Of a stretch of DNA of 64,000 nucleotides, positions 31,701-57,816 are shown one piece after another. A program made the position numbers and the translations under genes. Each line of letters begins with the position of its first letter. Position 1 is the stretch's first letter. This DNA comes from a virus. The stretch lies in the IMG/VR virus record IMGVR_UViG_3300029362_000002, one strand, 5' to 3'. Under the pieces are notes generated by a model that saw only the letters and a list, made by a program, of their open reading frames with translations, did not search any database and was not told the origin of the DNA.

Positions 31701-34003
31701 CAGATGCTCAGAATAAGCAGTACAAAGAAATGACCGGCTGGTATGTGAAAGGACAGGAAGGAAGTGAGCTGACTAAGAGCTTGCAGCTGGGAGCAAACAC
31801 ACTGAACTCTGCATATGCAGAAAAAATTCAGAGTAATAGACAGAGCCTTGCAGAAAATGCACAGTATTCTTTGGAATCAGCACAGAATATGCTGGCAAGC
31901 GGAGATACTTTCTCTGCGTCAAATGCACTGATGTATGGCTTCAATGAGCTTGGCAATGGAAAAACACTTGGATTCACTACAGACGCTACACAAAATGCTT
32001 TGAGTACGATGTATGAAAGCATGAAACCAGACGTAACGCAGATGCAGGGATTGATTGATGATTATAGGGAAGCCGGAAAAGCGGTTCCACAGAGCTTGAT
32101 GGATTCTTTCAACGAAGCCGTTGAAGTCGGAGCGGCGGCAGGTGATACTGCGGCTACATGGCAGAATTACGCTAATCAGATTTGGCAGAATGGAAGCGAT
32201 GAATTAAAGGCATCACTTACAGACCCAAGCAATCCTATGTACGAGACTATCCGTTCTCAGCTTCCACCGGAATTGACAGAGGCAATAGATCGAGCGGCGG
32301 CAGAGACAACTACAGAGGACGTAACCCTGGAAGGCTTAAAGGCATCGGTTGACGGTGACGTAGATATAGACAAGGACAAATGGGTGTCTGCTTTAAATGA
32401 AAAGTTGGGAGATTTGGCAACAACAGAGGAAGTTACCGCAGAGGGTGCGACTATCAAAGTTGAAGCTGGGGACTGCTTATGGGATATTGGCAATGCCCTT
32501 GGTGTTGACTGGCGGACTATAGCAGAAGAGAACGGCATCGAAAGCCCATACGTTATTCATCCTGGAGATGAAATCAAGATTTCCATGGACACATTAACTG
32601 CCGAAGTAGATGGAGATGCAGCACAATCAGCAATCGATCAGGCAATGTCTGCGTTGACAACTGAGGGCGCTGAATTTTCTGTTACTGCAGAAGGCGTTCA
32701 AGTGGATTTGTCCGATGTTCAAGTAGATTCAGAATCAGCAGCCGCTCAGATTGAAGCGGCACTTGGCATGGAATCCGGAACACTTGCGGCGAATGGAATC
32801 GAGGTGCAGACAGGAGCAACGGTAACTGTGCCATCAGAATTGGTGCAGGTAGATGCATCTGGTCTGCAGGGAGCAACTCAGGAGGCGGTAAATCAGACAG
32901 ATACAGAACCAGTCGAAAAGGATACGTCCGCAAATGTTAATGTTACGGATACAACAACAAATGCTGAAGATGTACAGGGAAAAGTGGAAGAGGATCTGCA
33001 AGGAGCTGTCGGGGATGCTTCGGTCGAAGGAAGTGCGAATGTTACATTCTCTGATGTAACGGCTGATACGTCTGGAGTCTTGGAACAGGTAACAGCAGAA
33101 CTTGAAAACGCAGTAAGCAACGTGCCAGCCAATGGTCATGCCGAAATTACCCTGGATCAGACCAATAATTCATCAGAAATCTATTCTCTTGCGACAGGAG
33201 ATGTAGAGTCTGCATTTTCGCAAACAATTCCAACAGATGGTCATGCAGATGTTACGCTTGATCAGACAAACAATGCAGACGCCATTTATTCAGAATGCGC
33301 CGGACAGGTACAGAGTACATTTTCTCAGGGATTCTCAGCCTCAGCAGATGTCGCAGTTACACTGAACTGGCATATTACGAATCCATCAGCCAGCATATCC
33401 ACATCAAGTAGCGGATCATCTGTATCAGCTACTATTGCAGGTCATGCAAATGGAGGCGAAGTTGGATTAAGCGGACCAGAATTGTCATGGGTGGGCGAGG
33501 AAGGCTTAGAGTATATCATTCCTACAGTGCCAGGACGCAGACAAAGAGGAATCAGTTTGTGGATGCAGGCAGGAAAAACTCTCGGCATGTTTGGCCCTGA
33601 CGGAGAAATCTCAGCTCATGCCAATGGTGGAGCGGTAGGTGCCGGAAGCAGTATTATTCCGGAGGATTCCATACAGTTGGCACAGGTTCCAGAAAAGTCA
33701 GACAACACAGTCTGGAGCATTATGGGACAAGCGGTGTCCAACGAGAGCAGTAAGGATGCGTCAGAAGGAGACGGAACGACCTTCACTGTGAATAATGCGC
33801 AGCAGAATGATGGTGGAGGAAAAGTTGAAGTCAATGTAAATATGAATCCGGTCATTAAGATTGAAGGAAGTAACATGGATGAAGAAAAGATTTTCCAGGT
33901 TCTGCAGAATAGAATCCGAGAGATGGCAGATGATCTTGGCGATGAGATTGCAGAACGCATGGGTAAAATCTTCAACAATATGCCGGCAGTACAGGAGGCG
34001 TAA
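28718..34003 (+). CDS. Tape measure protein with tandem N-terminal repeats and an embedded LysM domain
   Basis: ~1760 aa. Probable TTG start at 28718, 8 nt after GGAGG (the track start GTG 28709 overlaps the RBS). Contains TMP core (TTKFTATQSAEAFNYMAMAGW), hydrophobic segments, and LysM at ~32449-32590. Confidence 0.85.
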   Translation: MAETVRIEIPVSVKDNTSAGVQSATRNMSNFERSMKRTEQQLNRLDRAHHVRVDADDQASGTINRLSSATESLDGTAADVEISANDTASQIVDQVEDQVSALDGSAADVDVGANDTATQVVNAASDAVENFDGQSGDAEIGADDGATPVIRAAEDAVENFDGSSGDAEIGADDGATPVVRAAQDAVENFDGMSGDAEIGADDQASPVIDSARDKAESWAGSVFNATIGIIDNVTAPIQSVLRAVSNPVVQGASLLGVSLGVADTVNTFKDFESMMSQVKAISGATGQDFEDLTAKAKEMGATTKFTATQSAEAFNYMAMAGWQPTQMIDGISGVMNLAAASGEDLGTTSDIVTDAITAFGLQAGDAGHFADVLAQASANANTNVGMLGESFKYVAPVAGAMNYTVEDTSLALGLMANASVKGSMAGTSLKTAIANMAAPTSSMAAAMEKYGISITDSEGNMKSLKGVMDNIRSSLGGLAEDEQTAAASTIFGKEAMAGMLAIVNASEDDYNKLSTAIYNSKDAAQDMADTMMDNLAGSMTLMQSAVEGVQNSFGKRLSPYLKTAVEGITAEMPAVEEALNNIMDVVDGKATSLKRSIKSMTGSQEWKDADFFGKVDIAWDKIIAEPFMSWAGSEGKSMLSQGIGKLFSSASAILPGGEKAGLTSWLSAGLIGVGASKLISGGKNVASALTPIGSAIKNIASAASEADTVGGFFTSLTGMTSKAGMIGLGAAAIVAAIAGIAVAVDNYNSKVLNDNLEEHFGKIKLSAKEAEEIASGILNQKYLTNVELALNEVKNADSLREAAQKALESNDVLEFKSRVGITLTPEEREDYTSNIKTFVDSKIEELQSRTFAAHIHVQTYIGGTKEGDTLAKNIEDWARADNLELTNLSNDLQTAVEKALTDGIIDVDEEQAISALQEKMNNITARWKESEAQAKWDWINQEYGNLNAADLESGSFTELLEAMRGQRQSAKESVQADVEQWYSELNSMESAGRITDAQNKQYKEMTGWYVKGQEGSELTKSLQLGANTLNSAYAEKIQSNRQSLAENAQYSLESAQNMLASGDTFSASNALMYGFNELGNGKTLGFTTDATQNALSTMYESMKPDVTQMQGLIDDYREAGKAVPQSLMDSFNEAVEVGAAAGDTAATWQNYANQIWQNGSDELKASLTDPSNPMYETIRSQLPPELTEAIDRAAAETTTEDVTLEGLKASVDGDVDIDKDKWVSALNEKLGDLATTEEVTAEGATIKVEAGDCLWDIGNALGVDWRTIAEENGIESPYVIHPGDEIKISMDTLTAEVDGDAAQSAIDQAMSALTTEGAEFSVTAEGVQVDLSDVQVDSESAAAQIEAALGMESGTLAANGIEVQTGATVTVPSELVQVDASGLQGATQEAVNQTDTEPVEKDTSANVNVTDTTTNAEDVQGKVEEDLQGAVGDASVEGSANVTFSDVTADTSGVLEQVTAELENAVSNVPANGHAEITLDQTNNSSEIYSLATGDVESAFSQTIPTDGHADVTLDQTNNADAIYSECAGQVQSTFSQGFSASADVAVTLNWHITNPSASISTSSSGSSVSATIAGHANGGEVGLSGPELSWVGEEGLEYIIPTVPGRRQRGISLWMQAGKTLGMFGPDGEISAHANGGAVGAGSSIIPEDSIQLAQVPEKSDNTVWSIMGQAVSNESSKDASEGDGTTFTVNNAQQNDGGGKVEVNVNMNPVIKIEGSNMDEEKIFQVLQNRIREMADDLGDEIAERMGKIFNNMPAVQEA
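28850..29368 (+). repeat. Six tandem ~87-bp (29-aa) coding repeats in the TMP N-terminus
   Basis: Units such as FDGQSGDAEIGADDGATPVIRAAEDAVEN, FDGSSGDAEIGADDGATPVVRAAQDAVEN and LDGSAADVDVGANDTATQVVNAASDAVEN. Confidence 0.8.
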
Positions 34004-40207: not shown

Positions 40208-41254
40208 ATGGCAAATTTTGATGATATGAAGCTGGCAGTCGAGGCACTGTCCGGAGGAAAGAACACAGTTTTACTGGATGATCGTGGGATGCCGTCCATC
40301 ATGGTTGCGTTTCCAAAATTCAAAATCTCAGATGTAATTGCCGGAGGAAGTGAGAACATCCATCCGGCATTTTCCGTAGGTGGTGCGGAAAAAGATGTTG
40401 TGTATGTCTCCAAATTCCAGAACATTGTAATGAATGACAGAGCATATTCACTTCCGTTTAAGGACCCGAAGACCGGCGTGAACTTCGACCAGTCCGTCAA
40501 CTACTGCAGAAACAAAGGAACTGGATGGGGCCTGATGCCGTATTCCTTATGGAGCGCTATCGCTCTGTGGTGTAGAAAGAACGGCACTATGCCAAGAGGT
40601 AACAATAACTACGGCAGCGATCACGGATACCCACACGAGAAAGGAACACCGACTTACTACGATAGTAATAAGATCGCTCGTGTAGCAACCGGTTCTGGTC
40701 CTGATACATGGAGCCACAACTGGATGCCGGACGGAATCTTCGATCTGAATGGAAATGTATGGGAGTGGTGCGCTGGCATGAGACTTGTTGATGGCGAAAT
40801 CCAGATTATTCCGTATGCGAACAGCATGATTTTGACAACCAGTATGGCGGCTGGCTCTACAGAATGGAAAGCAATCGCAGCTGACGGTTCGCTGGTGGCT
40901 CCTGGCACTGCTGGTACTTTGAAATGGGATGTTGTTTCTGGAAAGATTCAGCTTACCAAAGGAACTATCACGCCGAAAGACACAGGAAACTGGCTGCCAT
41001 ATAACAATATGACACTTGGCGAAGGACTTACAGCAGCTCCGGAGTTGGCAAAAGCTCTCCTCCTGTATCCGGATGAGCCAAACGGAGATTACGGTGGAGA
41101 TTACCATGGAGTAAATACTTCCGGAGAGCGTTTGCCGCGCTGCGGGGGCAGCTGGAACTACACTTCCCGTGCTGGCGTGTTCAACGTGCACCTGGTCAGC
41201 CCTCGGACTAGCGCCGACGGCTACCTCGGTTTCCGCTCCGCTTTTGTAAACTGA
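40208..41254 (+). CDS. DGR variable protein 1 (FGE-sulfatase/C-type-lectin fold, putative receptor-binding tail protein)
   Basis: DLNGNVWEWCAGMR and C-terminal CGGSWNYTSRAGVFNVHLVSPRTSADGYLGFRSA. The last 113 nt are VR1. Located after the fibre genes. Confidence 0.85.
   Translation: MANFDDMKLAVEALSGGKNTVLLDDRGMPSIMVAFPKFKISDVIAGGSENIHPAFSVGGAEKDVVYVSKFQNIVMNDRAYSLPFKDPKTGVNFDQSVNYCRNKGTGWGLMPYSLWSAIALWCRKNGTMPRGNNNYGSDHGYPHEKGTPTYYDSNKIARVATGSGPDTWSHNWMPDGIFDLNGNVWEWCAGMRLVDGEIQIIPYANSMILTTSMAAGSTEWKAIAADGSLVAPGTAGTLKWDVVSGKIQLTKGTITPKDTGNWLPYNNMTLGEGLTAAPELAKALLLYPDEPNGDYGGDYHGVNTSGERLPRCGGSWNYTSRAGVFNVHLVSPRTSADGYLGFRSAFVN
41132..41244 (+). repeat. DGR variable region VR1
   Basis: 113-nt match to TR with 14 differences. 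Of these, 13 are at TR adenines and 1 is T->G at 41139 near the 5' edge. Confidence 0.9.
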
Positions 41255-41270
41255 GGACTGTAAACTGATT

Positions 41271-41288
41271 GCCGCCTGGGAAGGCGGC
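41271..41288 (+). promoter_or_regulatory. Hairpin downstream of VR1 (DGR target-recognition-type cruciform)
   Basis: gccgcct-ggga-aggcggc: 7-bp GC-rich stem, 4-nt loop, 17 nt after the stop codon. Confidence 0.65.
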
Positions 41289-41312
41289 GTTTGTGGTGAA
41301 AGGAGAAAGAAT

Positions 41313-41744
41313 GTGGCAGAACAGAGATCCGACAATATGACAGCAGAGATGGAAGAGGAAGGACTAACGATATTACAGAAAATTGAAGATATGGAAGTGT
41401 ACGCCCTCCCTCTCATCGAAAGATGGTCCATTGCACACCAGAAATTATTAGGTGACGATATAGCTCATTGTATGAACAGAATGTCGCAGCTGGCGTCGGC
41501 ATTAACGGTTGCATACTACAAGAAAACTTCCATCAGCGAACTGGATGAAATGAACAAAGCACTCCAGTCTCACATCAGAGTAGCCTATCGCCTGGGATAT
41601 TTGAAAGGAAAATCTTCCAGGAGTGAATGGGAAGGCCGTTCTGCAGAGATCGGAAGAATGATTGGAAAATATAAAGAATGGGTATACGGCGATCAAAAAT
41701 CGTCACAACAGAATAAAAGTGCAAAATCAAGGTACAGCCGGTAA
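41313..41744 (+). CDS. avd: DGR accessory variability determinant (Avd-like)
   Basis: 143-aa helical, basic protein between target and TR. GTG start 7 nt after AGGAG (ATG 41337 is an alternative). Confidence 0.65.
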   Translation: MAEQRSDNMTAEMEEEGLTILQKIEDMEVYALPLIERWSIAHQKLLGDDIAHCMNRMSQLASALTVAYYKKTSISELDEMNKALQSHIRVAYRLGYLKGKSSRSEWEGRSAEIGRMIGKYKEWVYGDQKSSQQNKSAKSRYSR

Positions 41745-41780
41745 TGATCCGGTTGTGCCGCCGGGAATAGGCTATTTCGT

Positions 41781-41893
41781 TTGCCGATCTGCGGGGGCAA
41801 CTGGAACAACACTTCCAATGCTGGCGTGTTCAACGTGAACCTGAACAACCCTCGGACTAACGCCAACGGCAACATCGGTTTCCGCTCCGCTTT
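41781..41893 (+). repeat. DGR template repeat (TR); transcribed with the 227-nt TR-RT spacer as the template RNA
   Basis: Non-coding copy of VR1/VR2. In the VR frame it holds 9 AAC + 1 AAT codons (ICGGNWNNTSNAGVFNVNLNNPRTNANGNIGFRSA). Confidence 0.9.
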
Positions 41894-42120
41894 ACTCTCA
41901 TATGCCAGAACCGGTCAGTTCAAGGACTGCCGGCAGTGCGAGAGATTTAAAGGAGTCTATTTCCGCTCCGACCGTGTGGAAGGAGAAAAATGGTTCTACT
42001 CGTGCGTGGGTAGAGCCGTCCCTGTGGAGACACACAAAGCAGGAGACACCTATGGAGGCCGCAAGTAGCGAGAGTGAAAGCTGCCACACATAGTCAAATA
42101 CAAAGGAGCGATAACGCAAC

Positions 42121-43341
42121 ATGAAGATTAAGAATGTTTTTGATCTTATCTTCTCCATGGAAAATCTGTATGGAGCCTTAGAAGATGCTTCAGATCAAAG
42201 GAGATATAACAAGGATGTAATGCTCTTCAATTTCAACGCCTGGGATAATTTGAAAGAGATTAGAGATTCTGTTTACGATGGGACGTATACCATAGACAAA
42301 TATTATATTTTCTATGTGTATGAACCGAAGAAAAGGATGATAATGTCCATCAAATTTAAACACAGAGTTGTTCAATGGGCGATATACAGAGTTATCAATC
42401 CTATGCTGATTAAGGGATATATCAAGGATTCTTACGGATGTATCCCGGAAAGAGGACCACTGACCGCTATGTTTCGGCTTAAATACTGGTTGGAACAGGT
42501 GAACCGTAAGGATGAGCAGTGGTATTACTTAAAACTAGATATAAGCAAATATTTTTACCGGATATCGCATCGGATACTAAAGAAAATACTTGCAAAGAAA
42601 ATTAAGGACCAGCGGTTGCTGAAATTGCTGGAATCAATTATAGATTGCAAACATACACCGTTTGGATTGCCGCCAGGACGTTCACCAGGGGAAGTACCTT
42701 TGGAAGAACGTCTTTTTGATGTCGGAATGCCTATCGGAAATCTGCTATCACAGGTGTTTGCGAATGTGTATTTGGACGCACTGGATCAGTTCTGCAAGAG
42801 GGAATTGCAAATTCATTGTTATGTCCGATACATGGATGATGTGATTATTCTCAGTAGTAGCAAGGCACAGCTCCAGGAATGGAAAGTCAGAATTGCTTCT
42901 TTTCTGGAAACGGAGTTGGAACTGCAGCTAAACAATAAAACTTGTATCCGGCCAATAAATCAAGGCATTGAATTTGTCGGATACAGGGTATGGCCTGACA
43001 AAGTGGTACTCAGGAAGAAAACAACACTTCACATCAAGAGAGTTTTGAAGGCAAAGAAAGAAGCGTACAGAGTGAAGGAAATTTCTTTTAAGCAGGCAAC
43101 AGACACACTGCAGAGTTACTTGGGAATGATGAAATATTGTGACTGCGATGCATTGAAGGAGAAGATTCTGGATGATTTTGTCCTGACGCACGCAGACATG
43201 AAACAAATTTACGAGGAAGGAGGGGATCGGGATGAGAACTACTATCGCAGAGGTGATGGATGGTCAGTCGAAGATTATCCAGTTACAGACGAAACTTATA
43301 GACCGGCTGGCACTTGCATTACTGCAGCATGGAACTATTGA
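42121..43341 (+). CDS. DGR reverse transcriptase
   Basis: RT motifs EPKKR, SYGCIPERG, LKLDISKYF, MPIGNLLSQVFANVYL (DGR-type SQ), YVRYMDDVII (YMDD), GIEFVGYRV. Confidence 0.9.
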   Translation: MKIKNVFDLIFSMENLYGALEDASDQRRYNKDVMLFNFNAWDNLKEIRDSVYDGTYTIDKYYIFYVYEPKKRMIMSIKFKHRVVQWAIYRVINPMLIKGYIKDSYGCIPERGPLTAMFRLKYWLEQVNRKDEQWYYLKLDISKYFYRISHRILKKILAKKIKDQRLLKLLESIIDCKHTPFGLPPGRSPGEVPLEERLFDVGMPIGNLLSQVFANVYLDALDQFCKRELQIHCYVRYMDDVIILSSSKAQLQEWKVRIASFLETELELQLNNKTCIRPINQGIEFVGYRVWPDKVVLRKKTTLHIKRVLKAKKEAYRVKEISFKQATDTLQSYLGMMKYCDCDALKEKILDDFVLTHADMKQIYEEGGDRDENYYRRGDGWSVEDYPVTDETYRPAGTCITAAWNY

Positions 43342-43402
43342 GGATAAGGAACTGGCAATGATTAAAGAAGCAGCGGATCTGCAGAAAGGACTGGAAGAAT
43401 GA
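43232..43402 (+). CDS. 56-aa helical ORF overlapping the RT 3' end (tentative)
   Basis: ATG 8 nt after GGAGG. MRTTIAEVMDGQSKIIQLQTKLIDRLALALLQHGTIEDKELAMIKEAADLQKGLEE. Overlaps the RT by 110 nt in another frame. Confidence 0.3.
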   Translation: MRTTIAEVMDGQSKIIQLQTKLIDRLALALLQHGTIEDKELAMIKEAADLQKGLEE

Positions 43403-48092: not shown

Positions 48093-48290
48093 ATGAAGTT
48101 AAATGACATTGTAATGGCATCTACGCAAGATACAAAAATCAGAGTGGTTGTAAAACTGTACGGAACGAGCTTCCGCACAGAACATTTTCCAGAATACTTC
48201 TTAGAAAGTGAAGAGATGGATGAACTGATGGACAGAGAGGTTGTGGATATCAGAGTAGTTGATAATCTTTTGGAAGCCACATTGAGATAG
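48093..48290 (+). CDS. Hypothetical small acidic protein
   Basis: 65-aa ORF after GGGAGG. Confidence 0.5.
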   Translation: MKLNDIVMASTQDTKIRVVVKLYGTSFRTEHFPEYFLESEEMDELMDREVVDIRVVDNLLEATLR

Positions 48291-48311
48291 GCAAGCAGGA
48301 GGACATAAACA

Positions 48312-48509
48312 TTGGCAGTGCGAAGAACTTACTACAGGGATCGATGGAATGAAAAGAAGGTATGGGAAGTTGTAAAACTGGTTGGTGGCTATTATCTCCG
48401 GCAGTATATCAGCGGTCAGCAGGTAGGAAGAGGGATGAAGACATCGAAGAAATTTATCAAGAGCATAGGCGTTTTTGAATTTGAAGAAGTAGGAGGAATT
48501 ACAGGATGA
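48312..48509 (+). CDS. Hypothetical protein
   Basis: 65 aa, TTG start after GGAGG. Confidence 0.45.
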   Translation: MAVRRTYYRDRWNEKKVWEVVKLVGGYYLRQYISGQQVGRGMKTSKKFIKSIGVFEFEEVGGITG

Positions 48510-48886
48510 AATGGGATGTTAAACACGACAGAGCAAAGAAAGTAATTGATCGTTTCCTGGATAACGCAGGATACTGGCAGGAGTCAGAAGACCTGGTTAC
48601 AGGCCTGACGGATGAAGAGAAGGAACTGGTAAATGCGGAAGTTGAGCTGATGATCGCATCCATCAGAAAGCGTTACAAATTGCAGGAGCGCTTGCCAGAG
48701 CAGGTAGCTGAAGCAGAAAAGCCAGCAGAGAAAGCAGTAGAGGAACCGATAGAAGAACCGGTTAAAAAGCCAAGAGCAAGAAAGCCGAAGACAGAGAATG
48801 CGACAGAAGAGAAGCCGGCAGCAAAGAGAACAAGAACCAAGAAAGCGGAAAAGGAGAAAGCTAAAGACCATGGGGAAAATGATTAA
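48506..48886 (+). CDS. Hypothetical protein with Lys/Glu/Pro-rich tail
   Basis: 126 aa, ATGA-coupled. Confidence 0.5.
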   Translation: MKWDVKHDRAKKVIDRFLDNAGYWQESEDLVTGLTDEEKELVNAEVELMIASIRKRYKLQERLPEQVAEAEKPAEKAVEEPIEEPVKKPRARKPKTENATEEKPAAKRTRTKKAEKEKAKDHGEND

Positions 48887-49175
48887 TTGGAGCATGAAGG
48901 ACACTAATGGTTGCGTACAGAGAGGGCAGATGTTCCTCTCTCAGCTTCCGAAAATTCTTCTGAGTTTTGAGAATAGCGCAGCGGAAACACTGAGAAGAAC
49001 CGGAGCCGACCACGTACTTTATGCGGTTAAAATTTACAATACAGCAGACGAATTGACAGCAGTGCAGTTCTATATGAATCCGATGTCAGATGAGGAATTT
49101 TCCAAAGTGGCCGGAAAAGGACGAGGAACTATGATATATGCGTTGCATAGCAGAAAGGTAAAGGTGGCGGGATGA
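48870..49175 (+). CDS. Hypothetical protein
   Basis: Internal ATG of track ORF 48798..49175. Start uncertain. Confidence 0.45.
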   Translation: MGKMINWSMKDTNGCVQRGQMFLSQLPKILLSFENSAAETLRRTGADHVLYAVKIYNTADELTAVQFYMNPMSDEEFSKVAGKGRGTMIYALHSRKVKVAG

Positions 49176-49438
49176 AAAAGAAAATCGAAGAGCTGTTTCG
49201 ACTGGCAATGAAAGCCCAGGAGAAAACAAGCGCATACGTGTCATTCGAGACATCAAATCACGGATGGGGATGTGTGGTAATGATTATGGATGATGGCTTC
49301 GAGGTAAAACATGGGTATGATGGTTGGTACGAAATGGATATGTTTTATTCGGATGAAAGATCAGAGGAACAGTATCAGAAAGCAAAAGAACATTTAATCA
49401 GATTACTCAGAAAAAAGAGAAAGGTGGCAACAGCATGA
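49172..49438 (+). CDS. Hypothetical protein
   Basis: 88 aa, ATGA-coupled. Confidence 0.5.
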   Translation: MKKKIEELFRLAMKAQEKTSAYVSFETSNHGWGCVVMIMDDGFEVKHGYDGWYEMDMFYSDERSEEQYQKAKEHLIRLLRKKRKVATA

Positions 49439-49827
49439 ATACGGTAGCAAAGCTGACACAGAAGCAGATTGAAAAACTTGCAGTGGAGATCCGGACGTTT
49501 CTCCTGGAACACGATATGTGGGTGGACACTCAGATTTATTTCAACGGAAAATGCTTTGACACACACGACAAGGAGACAGGCGAGTTCTATTACAATGATC
49601 CGGAACATCTGGTTGTGAGAGAAAACGAGGACCCAAGAAGATATTTTGAGAATGTGGCAGAAGACCATATCCTCAGTATGGCTTTTGAAGGCAGTGTGTG
49701 CCATATGCTTTGGTATGGGACCAATCCTGGAATCAAGAAAAAATTTGATAGAATTTTTGAAAAAAGAGGAATTTATTACGAGTTTGGAGACCACTGGAAC
49801 TTCACCTGTTATTACATAGGAGAGTGA
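49435..49827 (+). CDS. Hypothetical protein
   Basis: 130 aa, ATGA-coupled. Confidence 0.5.
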   Translation: MNTVAKLTQKQIEKLAVEIRTFLLEHDMWVDTQIYFNGKCFDTHDKETGEFYYNDPEHLVVRENEDPRRYFENVAEDHILSMAFEGSVCHMLWYGTNPGIKKKFDRIFEKRGIYYEFGDHWNFTCYYIGE

Positions 49828-49834
49828 GCAAAAT

Positions 49835-50029
49835 ATGGGACACAGAAAAATGTCAGCCTACGGAGAAAGAGAACACAATGGCAGATATGTATTGGATGAT
49901 TATGAATTTTCACGGAATCATACCAAGGCAGAGACAATCAGAAGATGGAGAAGAGACTTAAAAAAGAAAGCAAGATCCCGCAGGAGAAAAGAAATCTACA
50001 AAGCGATGCAGAATTGCAGAGAGGAGTAA
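49835..50029 (+). CDS. Small basic hypothetical protein
   Basis: 64 aa, Arg/Lys-rich. Confidence 0.45.
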   Translation: MGHRKMSAYGEREHNGRYVLDDYEFSRNHTKAETIRRWRRDLKKKARSRRRKEIYKAMQNCREE

Positions 50030-50030
50030 A

Positions 50031-50483
50031 ATGGCATATTTGAATATTCAGAAGGCAGAGTTTAACAGAGCAACGGAGAATTTAATCGAGATCGCTTGGA
50101 AGTACGAAAGCCTGAAGGTAGAGTATGATTTCTTAACAAATACAGATAGCATGAGCTGGAAGCATCTTTTCGTTGCATGGGCGAATGAGTTCGAGGAATT
50201 GCACGGCTCAAAGAATTGGAATGAAATCGACGAGGACTATTACGAAACCATTGAAAGATTCGCAGAAGAAAAGATCATGGGTTGGGCTGGAAAGAAAAAG
50301 AGAATAGTAGTAGGCCGACACATGGAAGGAATCACGCTGAATCCGCTGGAATGGCTGTTGAGCAATGATGGAGCGGAAATAATGACATTTAATAGCGTTG
50401 ACGAGGCAAAAGGTTTTCTCAAAGGAAAAGGATACCAGGAAGAGGACATGGAGTTTCTTCGATTTGTAGAGGAGTGGATGTGA
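50031..50483 (+). CDS. Hypothetical acidic protein
   Basis: 150-aa ORF. Confidence 0.5.
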   Translation: MAYLNIQKAEFNRATENLIEIAWKYESLKVEYDFLTNTDSMSWKHLFVAWANEFEELHGSKNWNEIDEDYYETIERFAEEKIMGWAGKKKRIVVGRHMEGITLNPLEWLLSNDGAEIMTFNSVDEAKGFLKGKGYQEEDMEFLRFVEEWM

Positions 50484-50484
50484 C

Positions 50485-50721
50485 ATGGTTGGATTACTGA
50501 ACGATAGATGTATCCGGGTTTATTCAGAAATGAATGAGTGGATGGACTGTATTTTTATTGTAAGTGCAGAAGATGCGGAAAGGGCTGAAAAGGTTCTGCA
50601 GGAAGCATGGGACAGCTACTGGGAAGATGGAGATGGCTGGTGCTACGGAAATTATCTGTCGGACAAGATGATTAAAGCCGGTATTTCATTTGACGTATAT
50701 TATGCGGATTCGGAGGAATAA
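50485..50721 (+). CDS. Hypothetical acidic protein
   Basis: 78-aa ORF, Trp/Asp/Glu-rich. Confidence 0.5.
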   Translation: MVGLLNDRCIRVYSEMNEWMDCIFIVSAEDAERAEKVLQEAWDSYWEDGDGWCYGNYLSDKMIKAGISFDVYYADSEE

Positions 50722-50725
50722 AGGT

Positions 50726-51112
50726 ATGCAGAGTAAGAAAGTGCTTCTGATCGGAAGTTACTCACCGGAAAATGAAGGCAAGCCAGAGATAATCGACCGA
50801 GATTATTACCGGCAAGGATGGATTTTCAAGGATGAAGATGCTTTTCAGAACAGGCCAGACGATGTTTGCTATATTCCGGAATTGTCGGACGAAAAGTATA
50901 CGAGGAACGACATACTGAAAATACTTGCCGGAGACGAAGAACTGGCGAAGACAATGTTCGAGGAACTGGATTGGCAGCATCCAGAAAGTCTGTTGGAAGA
51001 CTGGAAAGCAAATGGCGAAATTGCTTGGTGCCCGCATTGTGTAGGATATGTTCAGACCTATGGTGAGGAGATTGAAAAGTGCCCGGTATGTGGCACAGAA
51101 TTGGAGGATTGA
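50726..51112 (+). CDS. Hypothetical protein with C-terminal zinc ribbon
   Basis: ATG at 50726 follows GGAGG. Contains CPHC...CPVC. Confidence 0.5.
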   Translation: MQSKKVLLIGSYSPENEGKPEIIDRDYYRQGWIFKDEDAFQNRPDDVCYIPELSDEKYTRNDILKILAGDEELAKTMFEELDWQHPESLLEDWKANGEIAWCPHCVGYVQTYGEEIEKCPVCGTELED

Positions 51113-51113
51113 G

Positions 51114-51518
51114 ATGGAAGAAAAGAAAATTGTTGAGACGTTGTTTGTGAGAAGATCCGTCAACGTGTCGGAACAGGATATAGACGATATTCTTTGCACT
51201 GCATTTGAAGGAGGAATCACTTATTGGTGCGACAGCGTAAGAGTCGTTGGAAATTACCTTGGAAAATATGCAAGCGATCAAATCAGCAGAGGCGGAAAAC
51301 TGAAATTTCATGTGGAAGAACCGTTCGACAATGAAGAAACAGAATGGTACGAAATGGATCAGGAAAAGTTTCTGCACGGATTACAGGAGTGGCTGAACTG
51401 TTCAAGAAACAGCAGCTCTTGTTTATACGAGAACAAGATTGACTGCAGTCAGATTGACGCACCGATGGCGGACGAAATCATCCAGTACACTTTGTTTGAT
51501 GAAATTATCTTTGACTAA
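51114..51518 (+). CDS. Hypothetical protein
   Basis: ATG at 51114. Contains a CTAFEGGITYWCD motif. Confidence 0.5.
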   Translation: MEEKKIVETLFVRRSVNVSEQDIDDILCTAFEGGITYWCDSVRVVGNYLGKYASDQISRGGKLKFHVEEPFDNEETEWYEMDQEKFLHGLQEWLNCSRNSSSCLYENKIDCSQIDAPMADEIIQYTLFDEIIFD

Positions 51519-51532
51519 AGAAAGGAGAAAAA

Positions 51533-51883
51533 ATGAGCAAAGGAATTGTTACACAGCATGAAACGATCTGTTTCATTTGTGGCCGGCGGGCAGAAGCAGA
51601 ACATCACTTGATTTTCGGAACAGCAGGAAGAGAACTGTCAGAGAAAGACGGATTGAAAGTTCCGGTATGTAACAACTGTCATAATATGGGCCAGAAGCTG
51701 TGCCGGATTCACGAAAATCCTATGGCAGAGAGAATGTCAAAGATGATCGGGCAGCTGGCCTGGGAAAGAGAGTGGCTGTTAAAAAATACGGTAACTATCA
51801 ACAGCAAGGGACAGATGGCGAAGGTAGAAGGAAATGTAGTCAGATCACAATTCATGAAAAGATATGGCAGATCATATTTGTAG
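51533..51883 (+). CDS. HNH-like zinc-binding nuclease-fold protein
   Basis: CFICGRRAEAEHHLIFG...VPVCNNCHN has CxxC..HH..CxxCH spacing, as in HNH motifs. Confidence 0.45.
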   Translation: MSKGIVTQHETICFICGRRAEAEHHLIFGTAGRELSEKDGLKVPVCNNCHNMGQKLCRIHENPMAERMSKMIGQLAWEREWLLKNTVTINSKGQMAKVEGNVVRSQFMKRYGRSYL

Positions 51884-51944
51884 GAGGCGAGAGTATGGGA
51901 GCTATACTAATGTTACTGTTTTTGTTATACGTTGGGTACAGAAA

Positions 51945-52487
51945 GTGAGGAAAAGAACTGTGAACAATCAGGAAATTTTGGAAGCATTAAAAAAATCAGT
52001 AGCAATGCCGCCGGTCCTTTGCATGAACGAAAGAAGTGTGATATTCGTTGATTATGCGGATGGACATGGCGAGGCAAAAACCCAGGTAAATAATTGGTTC
52101 CGTTGTCCTTGCTGCAGCAGCATTGTGGGAGAGAGAAGAATTGTGGCTAAAAGAGCAGTCGATCAGAGGAAGAAGCCCTACTGTGAGAAATGTGGCCAGA
52201 AGATAAAATGGACTGTAGGAGATGAAGAACAGAGCAGACTTATTACTGTAAATACTCCAGACACAGAGTACACAGTGCTGGCAAAGCGGATTGACGATGG
52301 AAGATATGTACAGCTTGGAGGAGTATTCGGAAACGAGCTGCTTTGTAGAAAACGCTTCGAGGAGAAGGTGAGAAACCAGGAAATTTTTTACGGAATTGAT
52401 TTAAGCACCGCAGTATTTGCAAAGAGAGAGACAGTGACACTGACAGAAGAATGGGAGGCAATGGGAAATGTTGATCTGGAGATGTAA
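51945..52487 (+). CDS. Zinc-ribbon hypothetical protein
   Basis: CPCC...CEKC. Start uncertain (GTG 51945, GTG 51960 or ATG 51864). Confidence 0.45.
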   Translation: MRKRTVNNQEILEALKKSVAMPPVLCMNERSVIFVDYADGHGEAKTQVNNWFRCPCCSSIVGERRIVAKRAVDQRKKPYCEKCGQKIKWTVGDEEQSRLITVNTPDTEYTVLAKRIDDGRYVQLGGVFGNELLCRKRFEEKVRNQEIFYGIDLSTAVFAKRETVTLTEEWEAMGNVDLEM

Positions 52488-52797
52488 GAAGTGTGGGTGG
52501 ATAGGAAGGGACTCCGACCTGGGCCTGCATTATGGAAATGATGAGGAATATTGTCCTCGGTGCAAGGAAGTAGATAGCATTGCAACAGTTGATTTTTCTG
52601 ACCGCTTCAACAGCCAGGAAGTTGAAAAGCTGTGGCAGTTTTTTGGAGAAATCCCCATTGATGATGAAGATGCTATTTTGGAAGAGTTCCTGGGATTTTC
52701 GGAAGGAACGGACAGAATAGAAATCTGGCACTGGTTTGATGAGAATTATCCGGAAGGAGTGACCGAACTGGTAAACGGAGGAAGACATGGTAATTGA
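52468..52797 (+). CDS. Zinc-ribbon acidic hypothetical protein
   Basis: CKKC...CPRC at the N-terminus with an acidic remainder. Confidence 0.5.
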   Translation: MLIWRCKKCGWIGRDSDLGLHYGNDEEYCPRCKEVDSIATVDFSDRFNSQEVEKLWQFFGEIPIDDEDAILEEFLGFSEGTDRIEIWHWFDENYPEGVTELVNGGRHGN

Positions 52798-53131
52798 GAG
52801 AACTATATTAAGCAAAGTGGCAGAACTTAATGGGATTTCTATCTGTGATGAGAGAACAGTGAAAATCGAGTTGACAGAGGCAGAAATCGAAGAAGCGTAC
52901 CGGATCAGGGAAAGAGAATATCTGGAAGAGGATATAAAGAATGCTGTTGAAGAGTTCTGCGATTATTGGGGGATTCCTAAAGGTATTGCCGGAGGCTTAA
53001 ATGACAATCCGGATATCATCTGCAAGATTGCGAGCTTGTACGAAAAGAATCAGGACACAAATGTAGCATCTGCTGATACGATGAAAGAGGCGGTAAAACA
53101 GGTTTTGAAAAAGGAAGGAGTTTGGAAATGA
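52787..53131 (+). CDS. Hypothetical acidic protein
   Basis: 114-aa ORF. Confidence 0.5.
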   Translation: MVIERTILSKVAELNGISICDERTVKIELTEAEIEEAYRIREREYLEEDIKNAVEEFCDYWGIPKGIAGGLNDNPDIICKIASLYEKNQDTNVASADTMKEAVKQVLKKEGVWK

Positions 53132-53385
53132 GCAGGGTAGTTTATCCGGCAAGGGAAACCGTAACGGAGATCAGAGGCGAAGATGCGGCAGAGATCATCA
53201 ATAAAATGATGGAGAAGGAAGGAATGACGCAGATCCAGCTGGCTCAGAAAATGGGAATCACCAGACAGAGAGTGAGCAGATTGATTTCTGGGAATATGAG
53301 ATATGAGAATTTCGTGAGGATTATCAATGCTGCTGGGTATGATGTGAAAATTGAAAAACGCAAGTGCGAGAAAAACTCGAAATAA
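53122..53385 (+). CDS. XRE-family HTH regulator, last gene of operon 1
   Basis: MTQIQLAQKMGITRQRVSRLISGN. Its 3' coding end contains an operator-like GCAAGTGCGA (53360-53369). Confidence 0.65.
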   Translation: MEMSRVVYPARETVTEIRGEDAAEIINKMMEKEGMTQIQLAQKMGITRQRVSRLISGNMRYENFVRIINAAGYDVKIEKRKCEKNSK

Positions 53386-53445
53386 TAGAGCAAAACTATT
53401 GACAAATACGCAAGTGCGAGTTATAATATATACATAATCAAACAA
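53384..53445 (+). repeat. 62-bp exact direct repeat, copy 2 (contains promoter P2)
   Basis: Identical to 47369-47430. Confidence 0.95.
53399..53427 (+). promoter_or_regulatory. Consensus promoter P2 with operator-like motifs
   Basis: TTGACA, 17 nt, TATAAT. GCAAGTGCGA in the spacer (53410-53419) and again exactly 50 bp upstream (53360-53369). TCGCAAATACGA at 53675-53686 and TCGCACTTGCA at 53694-53704. Confidence 0.75.
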
Positions 53446-53473
53446 TAAATAAAACATTTGGGAGGTATATATT

Positions 53474-53656
53474 ATGGCAACATTAGAAAATGATATCAAG
53501 GTAGCAGAAGAAAGAATCAGAGAAATGGAGAAAAGAAGAAGCTATTTTGCTGAAAAATATGCAGAAACAGGAGAATCATTTTACAAGAAGATGGCAGAGA
53601 GCGAAACAGATATGATAGCAGAAGTAAGACAGGCAATTATAGAGGCATTGGTGTAA
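53474..53656 (+). CDS. Small coiled-coil hypothetical protein
   Basis: 60-aa ORF after GGGAGG. Confidence 0.45.
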   Translation: MATLENDIKVAEERIREMEKRRSYFAEKYAETGESFYKKMAESETDMIAEVRQAIIEALV

Positions 53657-53717
53657 TTTTTTTACCTACATAGCTCGCAAATACGAGACAGAATCGCACT
53701 TGCAGAAAGGAGTACGA

Positions 53718-53903
53718 ATGAGCCATCAGAGAAAGACAAAGGATCGGTGGGACATAATGACAAACTGAGGATATGGCTGGGAGTGTGAGAACAGCGAATA
53801 CACCAGTGCAGATGCAAAGAGAAGCCTCAGAGAGTACCGAGAGAATCTTGCAGGAAGAGCAGAGGTGAGAATGGAAAAGCACAGAGAGCCGATCACAGCA
53901 TAA
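53718..53903 (+). pseudogene. 61-codon ORF interrupted by an in-frame TGA (codon 17)
   Basis: ATG follows AAAGGAG. MSHQRKTKDRWDIMTN*GYGWECENSEYTSADAKRSLREYRENLAGRAEVRMEKHREPITA, with TGA at 53766-53768. Confidence 0.4.
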
Positions 53904-53921
53904 TTTTAGGAGGAATATAGC

Positions 53922-54251
53922 ATGGCATTATTAGAGGTTAAGACAAGTTACGCAACATATACAGATTGCACATTAAGAGTAGGACAGTATCAGATGGATG
54001 GCAGTATTGCAGTTGAAATCTTCAGTAGAAGAGAGGGGCCAGTTGCAAGGATTACCGTTTGTCTGTGCGATTCAGCATTAGCAGAAAATGAAGCGTATGT
54101 GGATACAAATAATTGCCCTTGGGTAGTGGATTTCTTGGAGGCGAAAGGGCTGGCAAAATCGACTGGAAGAACGAGACGTAGCGGATATTGTATTTATCCA
54201 TCAATGAAATTCAACAGAGAGAAAATGGCAGAGTTTGAGGGAGGGTACTGA
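53922..54251 (+). CDS. DUF4313-like protein
   Basis: AVEIFSRREGPVARITVCL...AYVDTNNCPWVVDFLEAKGLAKSTG...SGYCIYP matches the remembered DUF4313 pattern from Firmicutes mobile elements. Confidence 0.45.
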   Translation: MALLEVKTSYATYTDCTLRVGQYQMDGSIAVEIFSRREGPVARITVCLCDSALAENEAYVDTNNCPWVVDFLEAKGLAKSTGRTRRSGYCIYPSMKFNREKMAEFEGGY

Positions 54252-54252
54252 A

Positions 54253-55164: not shown

Positions 55165-55415
55165 TGCCAGAACTTCTCACAGCAGAAATAGCCAATGAAT
55201 ACAGAATATTGGCAGAAAATCTTCCGGAAAATGGTAGGCAAGATACAGGCGAGAGAAGAGAACTGCGGCAGGAACTTCAAAGGAGATGCGGACTATCGGA
55301 ACTGCAGGCAATTAACATTTTGAATGGGTTTCATGTCAAAGACTACATAGCAATAAAAGAAAGGGAGTATGCAGAGAATGAGCGAAGAAAAGCAGAAAGA
55401 GATCAAGACACTTAA
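55164..55415 (+). CDS. Hypothetical protein
   Basis: TAATG-coupled start. 83 aa. Confidence 0.45.
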   Translation: MPELLTAEIANEYRILAENLPENGRQDTGERRELRQELQRRCGLSELQAINILNGFHVKDYIAIKEREYAENERRKAERDQDT

Positions 55416-56629: not shown

Positions 56630-57772
56630 ATGGCAAAAGCAAAGTTTATGAATGGTGAGTTTTCAGCAAAGTTTAAAGGAAAGAGAAGATTCGTTGCAGA
56701 GCAGATGGAAGCAATTAAGGATTATGCGGCAAGAGATGATATGCAGATCAATATTTGTCCGGTAATCCAGGAGAGACCTTCTGGAAAAAAGAATACTGAG
56801 GAGCAGATCACACCAACCCATTTCATCAGCGGAAACCTGGAACACGCAGTAGTGGCAATTTACGACAATGCCGGCATCCCGTCATTCATGCACAGATTCC
56901 GCAAGGTGACAAATAAGGAGCTGTTCGGTGGAAGCGATAAAACAAATGCAGCGTTTATCATTGGAGATGAAGAATACGATGAAATTTACATTTCTGTCTA
57001 TGAGAACTGCGAAATTAACGGAAAGCCTTATAGCCTGCCAATGCAGAAGCCATGGACAGGAATTACCAATGATGAGGCGGCGAGAGCTTGTTTTTCAAAG
57101 GGAGAGGGATGGCATCTTATGACAAGAGCTGAATGGGGATTACTTGCGAACCTCAGCTTGAAAAATGGTACTTTGCCACATGGCAACACGAACTATGGAA
57201 AGTACCATGCAAACCCGGAAGAACATGGAGAGTCAGCAGGAGAATCCGGAAAGACCAAAACCGGATCAGGACCGGCAACATGGACCCACGATCATACATT
57301 GGAAGGCGTTCACGATCTGTCCGGAAACGTATGGGAAATGGTAAGAGGCCTGAGAATAAAAGACGGACAGCTGGAGATGGTAAAGAATAACGATGCAGCA
57401 TTGGATATTGATCTTACCCTTGAAGGAGATAACTGGGAACCGGTAAGAGATGATTCCGGAAAGTCTATTAGAGTAAGCGTTTCCGATGGCGGTATCAAAT
57501 TCCTTGCTGAAAGTGATCACGAAGAGGGATACGATGGATGTAGATGGGAAGATGTTAATATTGATTGCGAGAGCGAAACACTGAAAGAGCTGGCTCTGTA
57601 TCCTGGAGAGCCGGAAGCCTACTGCTATATTGATAGCACTGAGGGAGAATATTTGCCGATCTGCGGGGGCAGCTGGTACAGCGCTTCCAGTGCTGGCGTG
57701 TTCCGCGTGCACCTGAGCAACCCTCGGACTAACGCCCGCTGGCTACCTCGGTTTCCGCTCCGCTTATTTTAG
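56630..57772 (+). CDS. DGR variable protein 2 (paralog of target 1), C-terminus frameshifted by a 1-nt insertion in VR2
   Basis: GIPSFMHRF, DLSGNVWEMVRGLR, ICGGSWYSASSAGVFRVHLSNPRTNAR then WLPRFPLRLF* instead of G-Y-L-G-F-R-S-A. Confidence 0.8.
   Translation: MAKAKFMNGEFSAKFKGKRRFVAEQMEAIKDYAARDDMQINICPVIQERPSGKKNTEEQITPTHFISGNLEHAVVAIYDNAGIPSFMHRFRKVTNKELFGGSDKTNAAFIIGDEEYDEIYISVYENCEINGKPYSLPMQKPWTGITNDEAARACFSKGEGWHLMTRAEWGLLANLSLKNGTLPHGNTNYGKYHANPEEHGESAGESGKTKTGSGPATWTHDHTLEGVHDLSGNVWEMVRGLRIKDGQLEMVKNNDAALDIDLTLEGDNWEPVRDDSGKSIRVSVSDGGIKFLAESDHEEGYDGCRWEDVNIDCESETLKELALYPGEPEAYCYIDSTEGEYLPICGGSWYSASSAGVFRVHLSNPRTNARWLPRFPLRLF
57653..57765 (+). repeat. DGR variable region VR2 (remote)
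   Basis: Matches TR with 13 substitutions, all at TR adenines, plus one inserted T at 57740. Confidence 0.9.
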
Positions 57773-57798
57773 AAAACTGAAAACTGAGTAACTGATAT

Positions 57799-57816
57799 GG
57801 CGGCTGGAAAGCCGCC
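57799..57816 (+). promoter_or_regulatory. Hairpin downstream of VR2
   Basis: ggcggct-ggaa-agccgcc: 7-bp stem and 4-nt loop. The stem arms are swapped relative to the VR1 hairpin. Confidence 0.65.

Follow-up and report, generated by a model that had tools for sequence, protein, structure and literature searches.

The window, that is, the whole 64,000-nucleotide stretch of DNA analysed, very probably carries a complete diversity-generating retroelement (DGR) of the Bordetella phage type within a temperate, contractile-tailed prophage of Blautia. Target gene 1, avd, the template repeat (TR) and the reverse transcriptase (RT) gene follow one another in that order at 40208-43341, and a second variable repeat (VR) lies about 16 kb downstream (Table 1). 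Substitutions between the repeats are adenine-specific, hypervariability is confined to the VRs, and the pairings of the associated RNA are conserved among relatives. DGRs of this kind are already known; the element is a further example and changes nothing in the knowledge of DGRs. The first-pass annotation had given the same order of target, Avd, TR and RT, and its coordinates for the three open reading frames are right, including the GTG start of avd. It had also called the element complete: all parts that it named are present, and the second VR of the same element had been left out. The element is thus larger than first described and has a second, non-adjacent target.

Table 1. Coordinates of the DGR features in the window
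Feature	Position	Strand	Description
Target gene 1	40208..41254	+	348-aa DGR variable protein, C-type-lectin/FGE-like fold
VR1	41132..41244	+	Mutagenised span 41138-41225; last 19 nt as in TR
(A)ACTG repeats	41249..41267	+	Three copies at 7-nt spacing, between VR1 and hairpin
VR1 hairpin	41271..41288	+	7-bp stem GCCGCCT/AGGCGGC, loop GGGA (fits GRNA)
avd (accessory variability determinant)	41313..41744	+	143 aa
Stop-duplex 5' strand	41762..41772	+	CGGGAAUAGGC; long-range RNA duplex closing off TR, pairs with 41955-41965
TR	41781..41893	+	113 nt, 26 adenines
Spacer (Sp) RNA	41894..42017	+	Structured, from TR towards the RT gene
Sp outer stem	41895-41899:41940-41944	+	
Sp stem-loop	41911-41933	+	9 bp, flipped-out U, CAAG tetraloop, Avd-binding-like
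Sp candidate primer strand	41948-41955	+	Conserved UAAAGGAG; AAAG:CUUU with 41890-41893
Stop-duplex 3' strand	41955-41965	+	
Sp short hairpin and A-run	41966-41990	+	
Sp long hairpin	41992-42017	+	
DGR RT	42121..43341	+	406 aa
Target gene 2	56630..57772	+	Target 1 paralogue (35% identity) in replication/early module; frameshifted near 3' end
VR2	57653..57766	+	Second variable repeat; 1-nt insertion, T at 57740
ACTG repeats after VR2	57776-57794	+	Three copies
VR2 hairpin	57799-57816	+	GC hairpin GGCGGCT-GGAA-AGCCGCC, z -4.2, GRNA-type loop

A hallmark of DGRs is that TR and VR differ at adenines of TR and in one direction only. Aligned without gaps at an offset of 649, VR1 and TR show exactly 14 mismatches, 13 of them at TR adenines (binomial P 5.6e-8 for 13 or more of 14 at adenines, given 26 A in 113 nt), and this recount agrees with the earlier count by eye. 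The lone exception, previously reported as T to G at 41139 on the 5' edge, stands as reported and adjoins an A to C change at 41138. Read in the VR frame, TR contains the 1 AAT codon that had been listed, 10 AAC codons instead of the 9 listed, and also 2 ATC and 2 ACT codons.

Eight metagenome contigs were picked for an identical encoded RT, regardless of their VR sequence. Compared with the window they hold 130 differing sites in VR1 (113 nt), 36 in the other ~6.0-6.2 kb and 0 in TR; per contig, 13-19 differences fall in VR1 and 2-7 in the remaining ~6.1 kb. The density of differences is approximately 14% per site in VR1 versus 0.07% elsewhere, about 200 times denser in VR1. Over the nine VR1 alleles, 106 of the 109 differences between VR1 and TR are at adenines, and the other 3 lie within the first 8 nt. 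TR is identical in all eight of these contigs and in six of seven IMG/VR relatives, among which all 26 TR adenines vary across 15 further VR copies. A VR/TR pair is kept at 24 of 27 genome loci whose RTs are 30-98% identical, usually with the VR ~600-720 nt upstream of TR and with mismatches mostly or all at adenines. The adenine bias is real and is reproduced over many independent public contigs, and hypervariability is confined to the VRs among otherwise near-identical genomes. From these comparisons of sequence the element was apparently active in recent time. Decay of the DGR was also observed in relatives, with TRs overwritten by VR sequence and, in one contig, avd deleted via VR/TR recombination; in relative L015 the 3' half of TR is converted to VR1 sequence, and avd is lost in relative L050.

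The RTs of DGRs carry YxDD and, where group II intron RTs have QGxxxSP, the motif [I/V/L]GxxxSQ. Both motifs attributed to the RT earlier, YMDD (codons at 42829-42840) and IGNLLSQ (within PIGNLLSQ), are present, and the catalytic motifs are undisrupted. The protein matches Pfam RVT_1 with 74.5 bits. Its best match in the PDB is 8ub7_A, the 328-aa bRT of the Bordetella phage DGR (136.7 bits), and the best group II intron RT scores 57.2 bits. In the 8ub7_A alignment the equivalents of bRT F66, R74, I76, D138, I181, G182, Q187, D215 and D216 are all conserved; the conserved residues include the catalytic Asp and the template and dNTP contacts. The alternative considered was an RT that belongs to a different retroelement, be it a group II intron, a retron or a defence system, next to repeats that are an ordinary duplication under diversifying selection. 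The best NCBIfam match is indeed a group II intron RT/maturase model, TIGR04416, at 111.6 bits versus a cut-off of 300, in a library that holds no DGR RT model. However, this score and those for Drt3a (59.4, cut-off 200), Drt2 (42.3, cut-off 390), retron St85 (41.9, cut-off 235) and AbiA (22.5, cut-off 250) are all far under the cut-offs, and the three identities were rejected. The lead of bRT by 80 bits among solved relatives, the IGxxxSQ motif, mismatches that are adenine-specific and one-directional beside an invariant TR, and an Rfam search without any match to intron RNA likewise stand against another retroelement, which has next to no probability and is effectively refuted. The RT is assigned to a DGR.

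The accessory protein adjoining the TR of a DGR is Avd or HRDC. The gene previously called Avd-like deserves the name, since Avd profiles match it in PHROGs (phrog_3206, 'Avd protein of DGR', E 1.9e-19), Pfam (bAvd, 37.6 bits, below the gathering score of 40) and NCBIfam (DivGenRetAVD, 44.4 bits, below the cut-off of 80). Avd is the only or top match in the three libraries, and in two of them the score is under the curated cut-off. The AlphaFold model (pLDDT 68.6) consists of four long helices in a four-helix bundle, and Foldseek places BPP-1 Avd, 4dwl, second and weakly (E 0.1).

Targets of DGRs have their VR at the 3' end of an open reading frame with a C-type-lectin/FGE-sulfatase-like (or Ig) fold. 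The GNVWEW and CGGSW motifs on which such a fold had been proposed for target 1 were both found. In a phmmer search against the PDB the protein matched the Thermus aquaticus DGR variable protein TaqVP (PDB 5VF4, chain 5vf4_A) with E 4.6e-62 over nearly its full length, including the C-terminal variable region, which bears out the C-type-lectin-type fold; the same search did not retrieve Mtd. Target 1 also matches phrog_2889 (E 3e-132) and, at 22.5 bits, falls just below the gathering score of 23.3 for Pfam FGE-sulfatase. The identity given earlier to the neighbouring genes, that of tail-fibre genes, had been drawn from synteny and is not backed by annotation: upstream lie baseplate J-like and Mu gp48/P2 I-like genes and then four small open reading frames, and none of them carries a fibre annotation. 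A scan of three of the four gave matches solely to PHROGs without an assigned function. Position after the baseplate genes, homology, and synteny with Faecalibacterium phage Lagaffe together suggest a tail protein with receptor-binding function as the product of target 1.

Target 2 is paralogous to target 1 over about 320 residues (BLASTP E 1e-59), has 70 N-terminal residues absent from target 1, and matches phrog_2889 (E 5e-96) and Pfam FGE-sulfatase (25.5 bits, above the gathering score). With the inserted T set aside, VR2 departs from TR at 14 sites, 13 of which are adenines while the fourteenth lies at the 3' edge, and the protein would be 386 aa, ending at 57791. The insertion is missing from seven other VR2 copies. 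In a contig with an identical ParB, which also has no T57740, 12 differences fall in VR2 and 2 outside it over 1.6 kb. Fresh homing would erase the frameshifting insertion, so no rewriting of VR2 has taken place after the insertion arose.

The insertion truncates the conserved GFRSA C-terminus, and the same allele stands unchanged in two other public assemblies. Together with the decay of the close relatives L015 (3' half of TR) and L050 (avd), and with Lagaffe_CP, in which VR variation was not seen at read level in culture (PMC11792537), this would fit a cassette that is intact here and now silent or recently disabled, its VR differences recording past activity of the lineage and not ongoing diversification. 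This is unlikely: in the window the RT, Avd and TR are intact, as are the elements of the spacer RNA and the two hairpins, TR retains 26 of 26 adenines, and the in-frame VR1 is unlike each of the other VR1 copies compared. A recently active element remains the preferred reading.

The neighbours of target 2 are primase-like, Rha-like and ParB-like genes, away from the tail module. The second targets of Lagaffe and, judged by VR position, of Clostridium phage Saumur are likewise outside the structural module, and the role of paired targets is described as unclear (PMC11792537). With the extra N-terminal 70 residues, these points leave some room, on the low side, for a DGR of which at least target 2 is an early-expressed, non-structural binder (of host defence or surface factors, for example, or with a lysogeny function) and not a virion receptor-binding protein; the DGR would then serve more than tropism switching. 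Against this, the two targets are paralogous, gene position does not prove expression time, and a scan of target 2 found no signal peptide and no domain beyond the FGE-sulfatase/C-type-lectin-like region. It is improbable that the lineage as a whole (the Blautia phage, Lagaffe and Saumur) keeps the second target outside the structural module as a diversified non-virion binder, which would mean a phage DGR put to a purpose other than receptor tropism.

Both VRs are followed by AACTG-type repeats and a GC hairpin. Homing in BPP-1 requires a 7-10 bp stem with a GRNA loop located 4-34 bp after the VR (PMC3240598); the VR1 hairpin has a stem, loop and distance within these limits and folds as DNA at -9.7 kcal/mol (z -4.6). 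The stem after VR2 is the inverse of that after VR1 in sequence, so structure is kept and sequence is not; in relatives the stem is kept through compensatory changes. The GRNA-loop hairpin is absent from TR. Repeats of the AACTG type also follow the VRs of most relatives, and the background of AACTG in the window is 0.0017 per nt. A DGR is expected to have an IMH at the VR 3' end that differs from the IMH* of TR. In the window VR and TR share an identical last 19 nt and diverge completely beyond, and an IMH was not delimited from sequence. The VR-specific repeats and hairpin may together have an IMH-like role. There is a minor chance that the AACTG repeats ahead of the hairpins serve in place of the IMH as a signal, peculiar to the lineage, for the recipient site.

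The RNA between TR and the RT gene is structured, and the covariation score of the whole structure is 0.41 versus 0.18 in shuffles, a value reached by 0 of 500 shuffles. Over 18 relatives, 97.5% of cells in the 11-bp duplex that closes off TR (41762-41772:41955-41965) are paired, and 7 of its 11 pairs change on both sides; this duplex corresponds to the 'cPRT Stop' duplex that avd and Sp form in BPP-1. All nine pairs of the stem-loop after TR change on both sides. For the 4-bp primer helix, 86% of cells are paired and a single compensatory change was seen, which weakly supports its proposed register. A search of Rfam at the gathering threshold gave no match; below it, RF02921 (RT-14) matches 41895-42017 over the full model length with 46.0 bits (gathering score 48.1, E 3e-5).

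The order of events and the priming site can be proposed from work on BPP-1. A single transcript would contain the segment after avd, TR and the spacer, and on folding the 11-bp duplex would close off TR. The stem-loop after TR would dock on an Avd pentamer, and the distal hairpins would wrap the RT. Using the spacer in cis, the RT-Avd complex would prime cDNA, probably on the conserved UAAAGGAG or beside it, and the cDNA would begin near G41889 in the 3' end of TR. TR would be copied faithfully except at its 26 adenines, where any base could be inserted, until synthesis halts at the closing duplex. The mutagenised cDNA would then replace its homologue, VR1 or VR2. VR1 sits at the 3' end of target 1, next to the baseplate genes, and VR2 at that of target 2 in the replication module, 16 kb further on. 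The GC hairpin with GRNA loop at each VR would mark the recipients, TR being without such a hairpin. Up to about 2e15 protein variants could result on the ligand-binding face of the C-type-lectin-fold domain.

The index of a public collection lists the identical RT protein in 3264 blocks, and the prophage is extremely common in human gut metagenomes. It is also found in cultured Blautia strains: Blautia fusiformis CLA-AA-H217 has an intact TR/VR pair, and in Blautia sp. Sow4_E7 TR is partly overwritten by VR1 sequence. A prophage in cultured strains provides a Gram-positive model in which three questions from the Bordetella system become tractable: whether the RNA-protein architecture seen by cryo-EM extends to distant DGRs (to which the covarying duplex across TR answers yes), how a choice is made between two recipient sites, and what job the second, early-region target performs.

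Several known systems resemble the element. Lagaffe and Lagaffe_CP share the order baseplate J, baseplate I, small open reading frames, Mtd-like target, Avd, TR, RT, two small open reading frames and endolysin, and the early region of Lagaffe encodes another Mtd-like target (TR 23032-23146, VR1 22449-22563, VR2 32602-32706). Both Lagaffe VRs, and how they vary between cognate genomes, have already been published (PMC11792537). The host family differs, identity is only 44% for the RT and 44% for the target, and VR2 of Lagaffe is internal to its gene whereas that of the Blautia phage is C-terminal. The nearest named phages are Saumur (host Enterocloster clostridioformis) and Dulem virus 37, with identities of 51% and 46% for the RT and 48% and 46% for the target; megablast found no nucleotide-level similarity to either. 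In tblastn target 1 matches two places in each, and Saumur has two VRs. Among solved structures TaqVP is nearest to target 1. The spacer aligns to the full RT-14 model, including its nested stems and the conserved CAGUGC and UAAAGG segments; the model does not extend to the spacer's pairing partner upstream of TR. RT-14 was described merely as RT-associated with role unknown, and RT-10 alone was tied to DGRs (Weinberg et al. 2017).

The BPP-1 DGR (mtd-avd-TR-brt) differs in several respects. The Blautia phage has a Firmicute host, a contractile tail, two targets of which one is 16 kb off, a target closer in sequence to TaqVP than to Mtd, AACTG repeats before the hairpin, and a stop-duplex 5' strand just after avd and not within it. 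Its TR-specific 3' segment is short, and for this reason no 34-bp IMH was delimited. The likeness to BPP-1 drawn at first reading is nevertheless borne out, down to the RNA architecture with its spacer element order and covarying duplex. The two share the gene order, the Avd accessory protein, and the catalytic and template-contact residues of the RT. In both, the VR occupies the 3' end of the gene for a C-type-lectin-fold protein, and a GC hairpin with a GRNA tetraloop comes after it. The element order of the BPP-1 RNP determined by cryo-EM is also alike: Avd-binding stem-loop, primer strand, TR-spanning duplex, short hairpin with adenosines, and long hairpin.

The element in the window is best supported as a complete DGR of the type known from Bordetella phage BPP-1; all parts named in the first-pass annotation, which had proposed a complete phage DGR, are present. 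Set against each other without gaps (offset 649 nt), VR1 and TR differ at 14 positions, 13 of which are TR adenines (P = 5.6e-8 for at least 13 of 14, with 26 A in the 113 nt of TR). The recount thus reproduced the 14 differences, the 13 at adenines and the T->G exception at 41139. The coordinates of target 1, the 143-aa ORF and the RT were borne out, and the four peptide motifs quoted from these proteins were all found in the ORFs. For the codons of TR in the VR frame, the single AAT stood and the count of AAC was corrected from nine to ten; two ATC and two ACT codons are also carried. The upstream genes, taken earlier for fibre genes, comprise a baseplate J-like gene, a Mu gp48/P2 I-like gene and, after these, four small ORFs, none annotated as fibre; three of these four ORFs were scanned and no known function was assigned. 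The DGR has one target more than was first described. The coordinates of the features are listed in the table.

Features of the DGR and its two targets in the window
Feature	Position	Description
Target 1	40208-41254	
VR1	41132-41244	113 nt
(A)ACTG repeats after VR1	41249-41267	three repeats, 7-8 nt spacing, between VR1 and hairpin
VR1 hairpin	41271-41288	7-bp GC stem, GCCGCCT-GGGA-AGGCGGC
avd	41313-41744	143 aa
Stop duplex, upstream strand	41762-41772	CGGGAAUAGGC, just upstream of TR
TR	41781-41893	113 nt
Avd-binding-like stem-loop	41911-41933	9 bp, flipped-out U, tetraloop; directly after TR
Conserved UAAAGGAG	41948-41955	its AAAG able to pair with CUUU at TR 3' end
Linker		2 nt, precedes the 41955-41965 strand
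Stop duplex, spacer strand	41955-41965	GUCUAUUUCCG, pairs with 41762-41772
Short hairpin, then AAAAA	41966-41990	
Long hairpin	41992-42017	
RT gene	42121-43341	
Target 2	56630-57772	
VR2	57653-57766	3' end of target 2 ORF
(A)ACTG repeats after VR2	57776-57794	three repeats, 7-8 nt spacing, between VR2 and hairpin
VR2 hairpin	57799-57816	7-bp GC stem, GGCGGCT-GGAA-AGCCGCC

The RT matches Pfam RVT_1 with 74.5 bits. Its best solved relative is 8ub7_A, the 328-aa BPP-1 DGR reverse transcriptase (bRT) of the cryo-EM work (136.7 bits, whereas the top-scoring group II intron RT in PDB reaches 57.2 bits). In the alignment with 8ub7_A the equivalents of bRT F66, R74, I76, I181, G182 and Q187, which are template/dNTP contacts in the BPP-1 cryo-EM description, and of the catalytic D138, D215 and D216 are conserved, in agreement with the DGR type first assigned to this RT. 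It scores far under every cut-off of the NCBIfam models of group II intron, retron, Drt and AbiA RTs, and cannot be placed with NCBIfam because that collection has no DGR RT model. A 56-aa ORF (43232-43402) that has a Shine-Dalgarno-like sequence of its own overlaps the final 110 nt of the RT ORF, and in several relatives the RT residues past about 350-365 are unaligned. Avd matches the PHROGs family 'Avd protein of DGR' (E 1.9e-19) and scores 37.6 bits with Pfam bAvd (gathering score 40) and 44.4 bits with NCBIfam DivGenRetAVD (cut-off 80); a phmmer search against PDB gave no match. Its single-sequence AlphaFold model, of moderate confidence, has four long helices, and Foldseek found with this model a weak match to Avd (E 0.1), not separated from other four-helix bundles. 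Target 1 matches PDB 5VF4, the Thermus aquaticus DGR variable protein with the C-type-lectin fold, over nearly its entire length (E 4.6e-62). We infer a place in the virion and receptor binding for target 1, as well as a role for target 2.

The spacer that separates TR from the RT gene (227 nt) matches the full Rfam model RT-14 with 46.0 bits (gathering score 48.1, E 3e-5), a family published solely as RT-associated. RT-14 was seen only in E-value mode; at gathering thresholds Rfam gave no match in the whole window. The RNA structure was drawn with the BPP-1 cryo-EM description as a guide and with 18 relatives aligned, the phages Lagaffe and Saumur among them. The spacer RNA elements stand in the identical order to those of BPP-1, and the duplex formed across TR has its counterpart there in the 11-bp avd:Sp 'cPRT Stop' duplex (Sp, spacer RNA). 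Over the 18 relatives 97.5% of the cells of this duplex are paired, with changes on both sides in 7 of the 11 pairs; the covariation score of the whole structure is 0.41, versus 0.18 for shuffles and at most 0.19 for slid controls. A primer:template register and an exact priming site are tentatively suggested by pairing of AAAG (41949-41952) with CUUU (41890-41893), which agrees with the geometry in BPP-1, 2 nt ahead of the stop duplex. The first base to be copied is predicted to lie near G41889. The AAAG:CUUU pairing is not kept in one group of related loci (L019, L025 and L027), where GGAGC:GCUCC is better. A near-copy of the TR 3' end (41879-41889), UUUCCGCUCCG, occurs in the spacer at 41959-41969. 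Its strict co-variation with TR was rejected, as it holds only by lineage, and the repeat is in part due to the stop duplex (5' half) and the short hairpin (3' half). A further small hairpin (41738-41752, CCGG-TAATGAT-CCGG) spans the avd stop codon; at this position, just before the spacer-pairing strand, distant relatives have a terminator-like hairpin with a T-run. The hairpin may have a bearing on where the TR transcript starts.

Homing in BPP-1 needs, 4-34 bp downstream of VR, a GC stem of 7-10 bp that carries a GRNA loop (PMC3240598), and the hairpins after VR1 and VR2 are this same feature. The hairpin is kept in relatives with differing stem sequences and with GGTA, GGCA, GAAA or GAGA loops; TR lacks a hairpin of this type. 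The (A)ACTG repeats are kept in most relatives, distant ones included, and are absent after TR. No description of them was found in the DGR literature searched.

IMG/VR was scanned with an adenine-masked pattern, which yielded 12 loci on eight contigs, 75-99% identical to the window across aligned segments. In the 15 VR copies, counting the two of the window, 203 of 217 differences from TR fall at adenines, every one of the 26 TR adenines varies, and non-A differences occur only at both edges. Because this pattern allowed no variation outside adenines in the first 49 nt, an unbiased count was made on contigs chosen solely by an identical RT protein (n=8), with 6,221 nt aligned to the window without indels. 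Summed over these eight contigs, 130 sites differ from the window in VR1 (113 nt), none in TR (113 nt) and 36 in the remaining ~6.0 kb, a per-site divergence of ~14% in VR1 and 0.07% elsewhere. Among nine VR1 alleles, 106 of 109 VR1/TR differences are at adenines and the remaining three lie within the first 8 nt. A VR/TR pair with mostly or wholly adenine mismatches was found in 24 of 27 genome loci (RTs 30-98% identical), with VR ~600-720 nt upstream of TR in most of the 24. These comparisons provide strong indirect evidence of recent activity of the DGR. The public collection has the exact RT protein in 3264 indexed blocks, and the prophage is therefore very common.

The sole non-adenine difference of VR1, T->G at 41139, lies beside A->C at 41138. 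It was seen solely paired with that change, giving the codon CGC, in several independent alleles of VR1 and VR2 alike (6 of the 15 VR copies of the IMG/VR scan, the VR1 of the window counted, and one of the eight identical-RT contigs). The CGC could have escaped conversion at a variable 5' integration boundary, in cases where the cDNA's 5' end integrates farther downstream, or it could be a rare non-adenine error maintained through selection for Arg. A simple integration boundary is disfavoured because in one relative (L010) the flank upstream of VR matches TR, yet CGC is present.

Three other relatives show routes of DGR decay. In Blautia sp. Sow4_E7 (L015, 5669-5790) the 3' half of TR bears substitutions of its own VR1, so that many adenines are lost. 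The TR of L006 (2604-2716) has two VR1-like changes, and L050, whose RT is identical, carries a recombinant of VR1 and TR (~2160-2300) from which avd is deleted.

A search of the window with the TR sequence, adenines masked, found a third copy at 57661-57709, within VR2. The ORF that carries it is 35% identical to target 1 across ~320 residues, belongs to the same PHROG and lies 16 kb downstream of TR, amid primase-like, Rha-like and ParB-like genes. Relative to TR, VR2 has an extra T at 57740. The resulting frameshift turns the conserved ...GYLGFRSAYFRKLKTE end (GFRSA... C-terminus) of target 2 into ...WLPRFPLRLF. The insertion is absent from seven other VR2 copies on related contigs. The same allele is found in two other public assemblies, with zero differences across 2.5 kb, and is therefore not a one-off assembly error; run SRR5056673 and assembly ERZ28634741 have this VR2 allele. 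Fresh homing would erase T57740, so VR2 of this lineage has not been rewritten since the insertion arose. In a contig whose ParB is identical, VR2 behaves as VR1 does: of 15 differences over the 1.6 kb compared, 12 are VR2 substitutions and one is the missing T57740. In this lineage target 2 is a further diversified paralogue that stands apart from the structural module.

Nearly the whole window belongs to a single temperate phage with a contractile tail. Among the genes identified are those for portal, head morphogenesis, major head, sheath, tape measure (1764 aa) and baseplate, the DGR, and also holin-like ORFs, an endolysin, an integrase and genes of accessory and replication functions. The C-terminal region of the head-morphogenesis (SPP1 gp7-like) protein (17409-19154) matches ADP-ribosyltransferase toxin and Alt-like PHROGs, and a tRNA-Gly gene (anticodon TCC, 10549-10618) lies within the phage region. 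A stretch of ~7 kb with small genes (48200-55400), flanked by the lysis module and the primase-like gene, is absent or divergent in close relatives (e.g. L007) and appears to be a variable accessory region.

RTs 98% identical occur in prophages of Blautia sp. Sow4_E7 and of Blautia fusiformis CLA-AA-H217, the latter with its TR/VR pair intact. The cassette gave no match by megablast to 50,697 phage records, and relatives were therefore sought by protein and pattern searches. The nearest named phages by RT are Clostridium phage Saumur (51%), Dulem virus 37 and Faecalibacterium phage Lagaffe (44%); TR and both VRs were located in Lagaffe and likewise in Saumur. The survey by Wu et al. (PMC5758913) describes non-adjacent targets inside the same prophage, and for Lagaffe_CP both VRs and how they vary between cognate genomes have been published (PMC11792537). 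The layout of the DGR is closest to that of Lagaffe, in which the synteny is identical and a second FGE-like target also lies in the early region.
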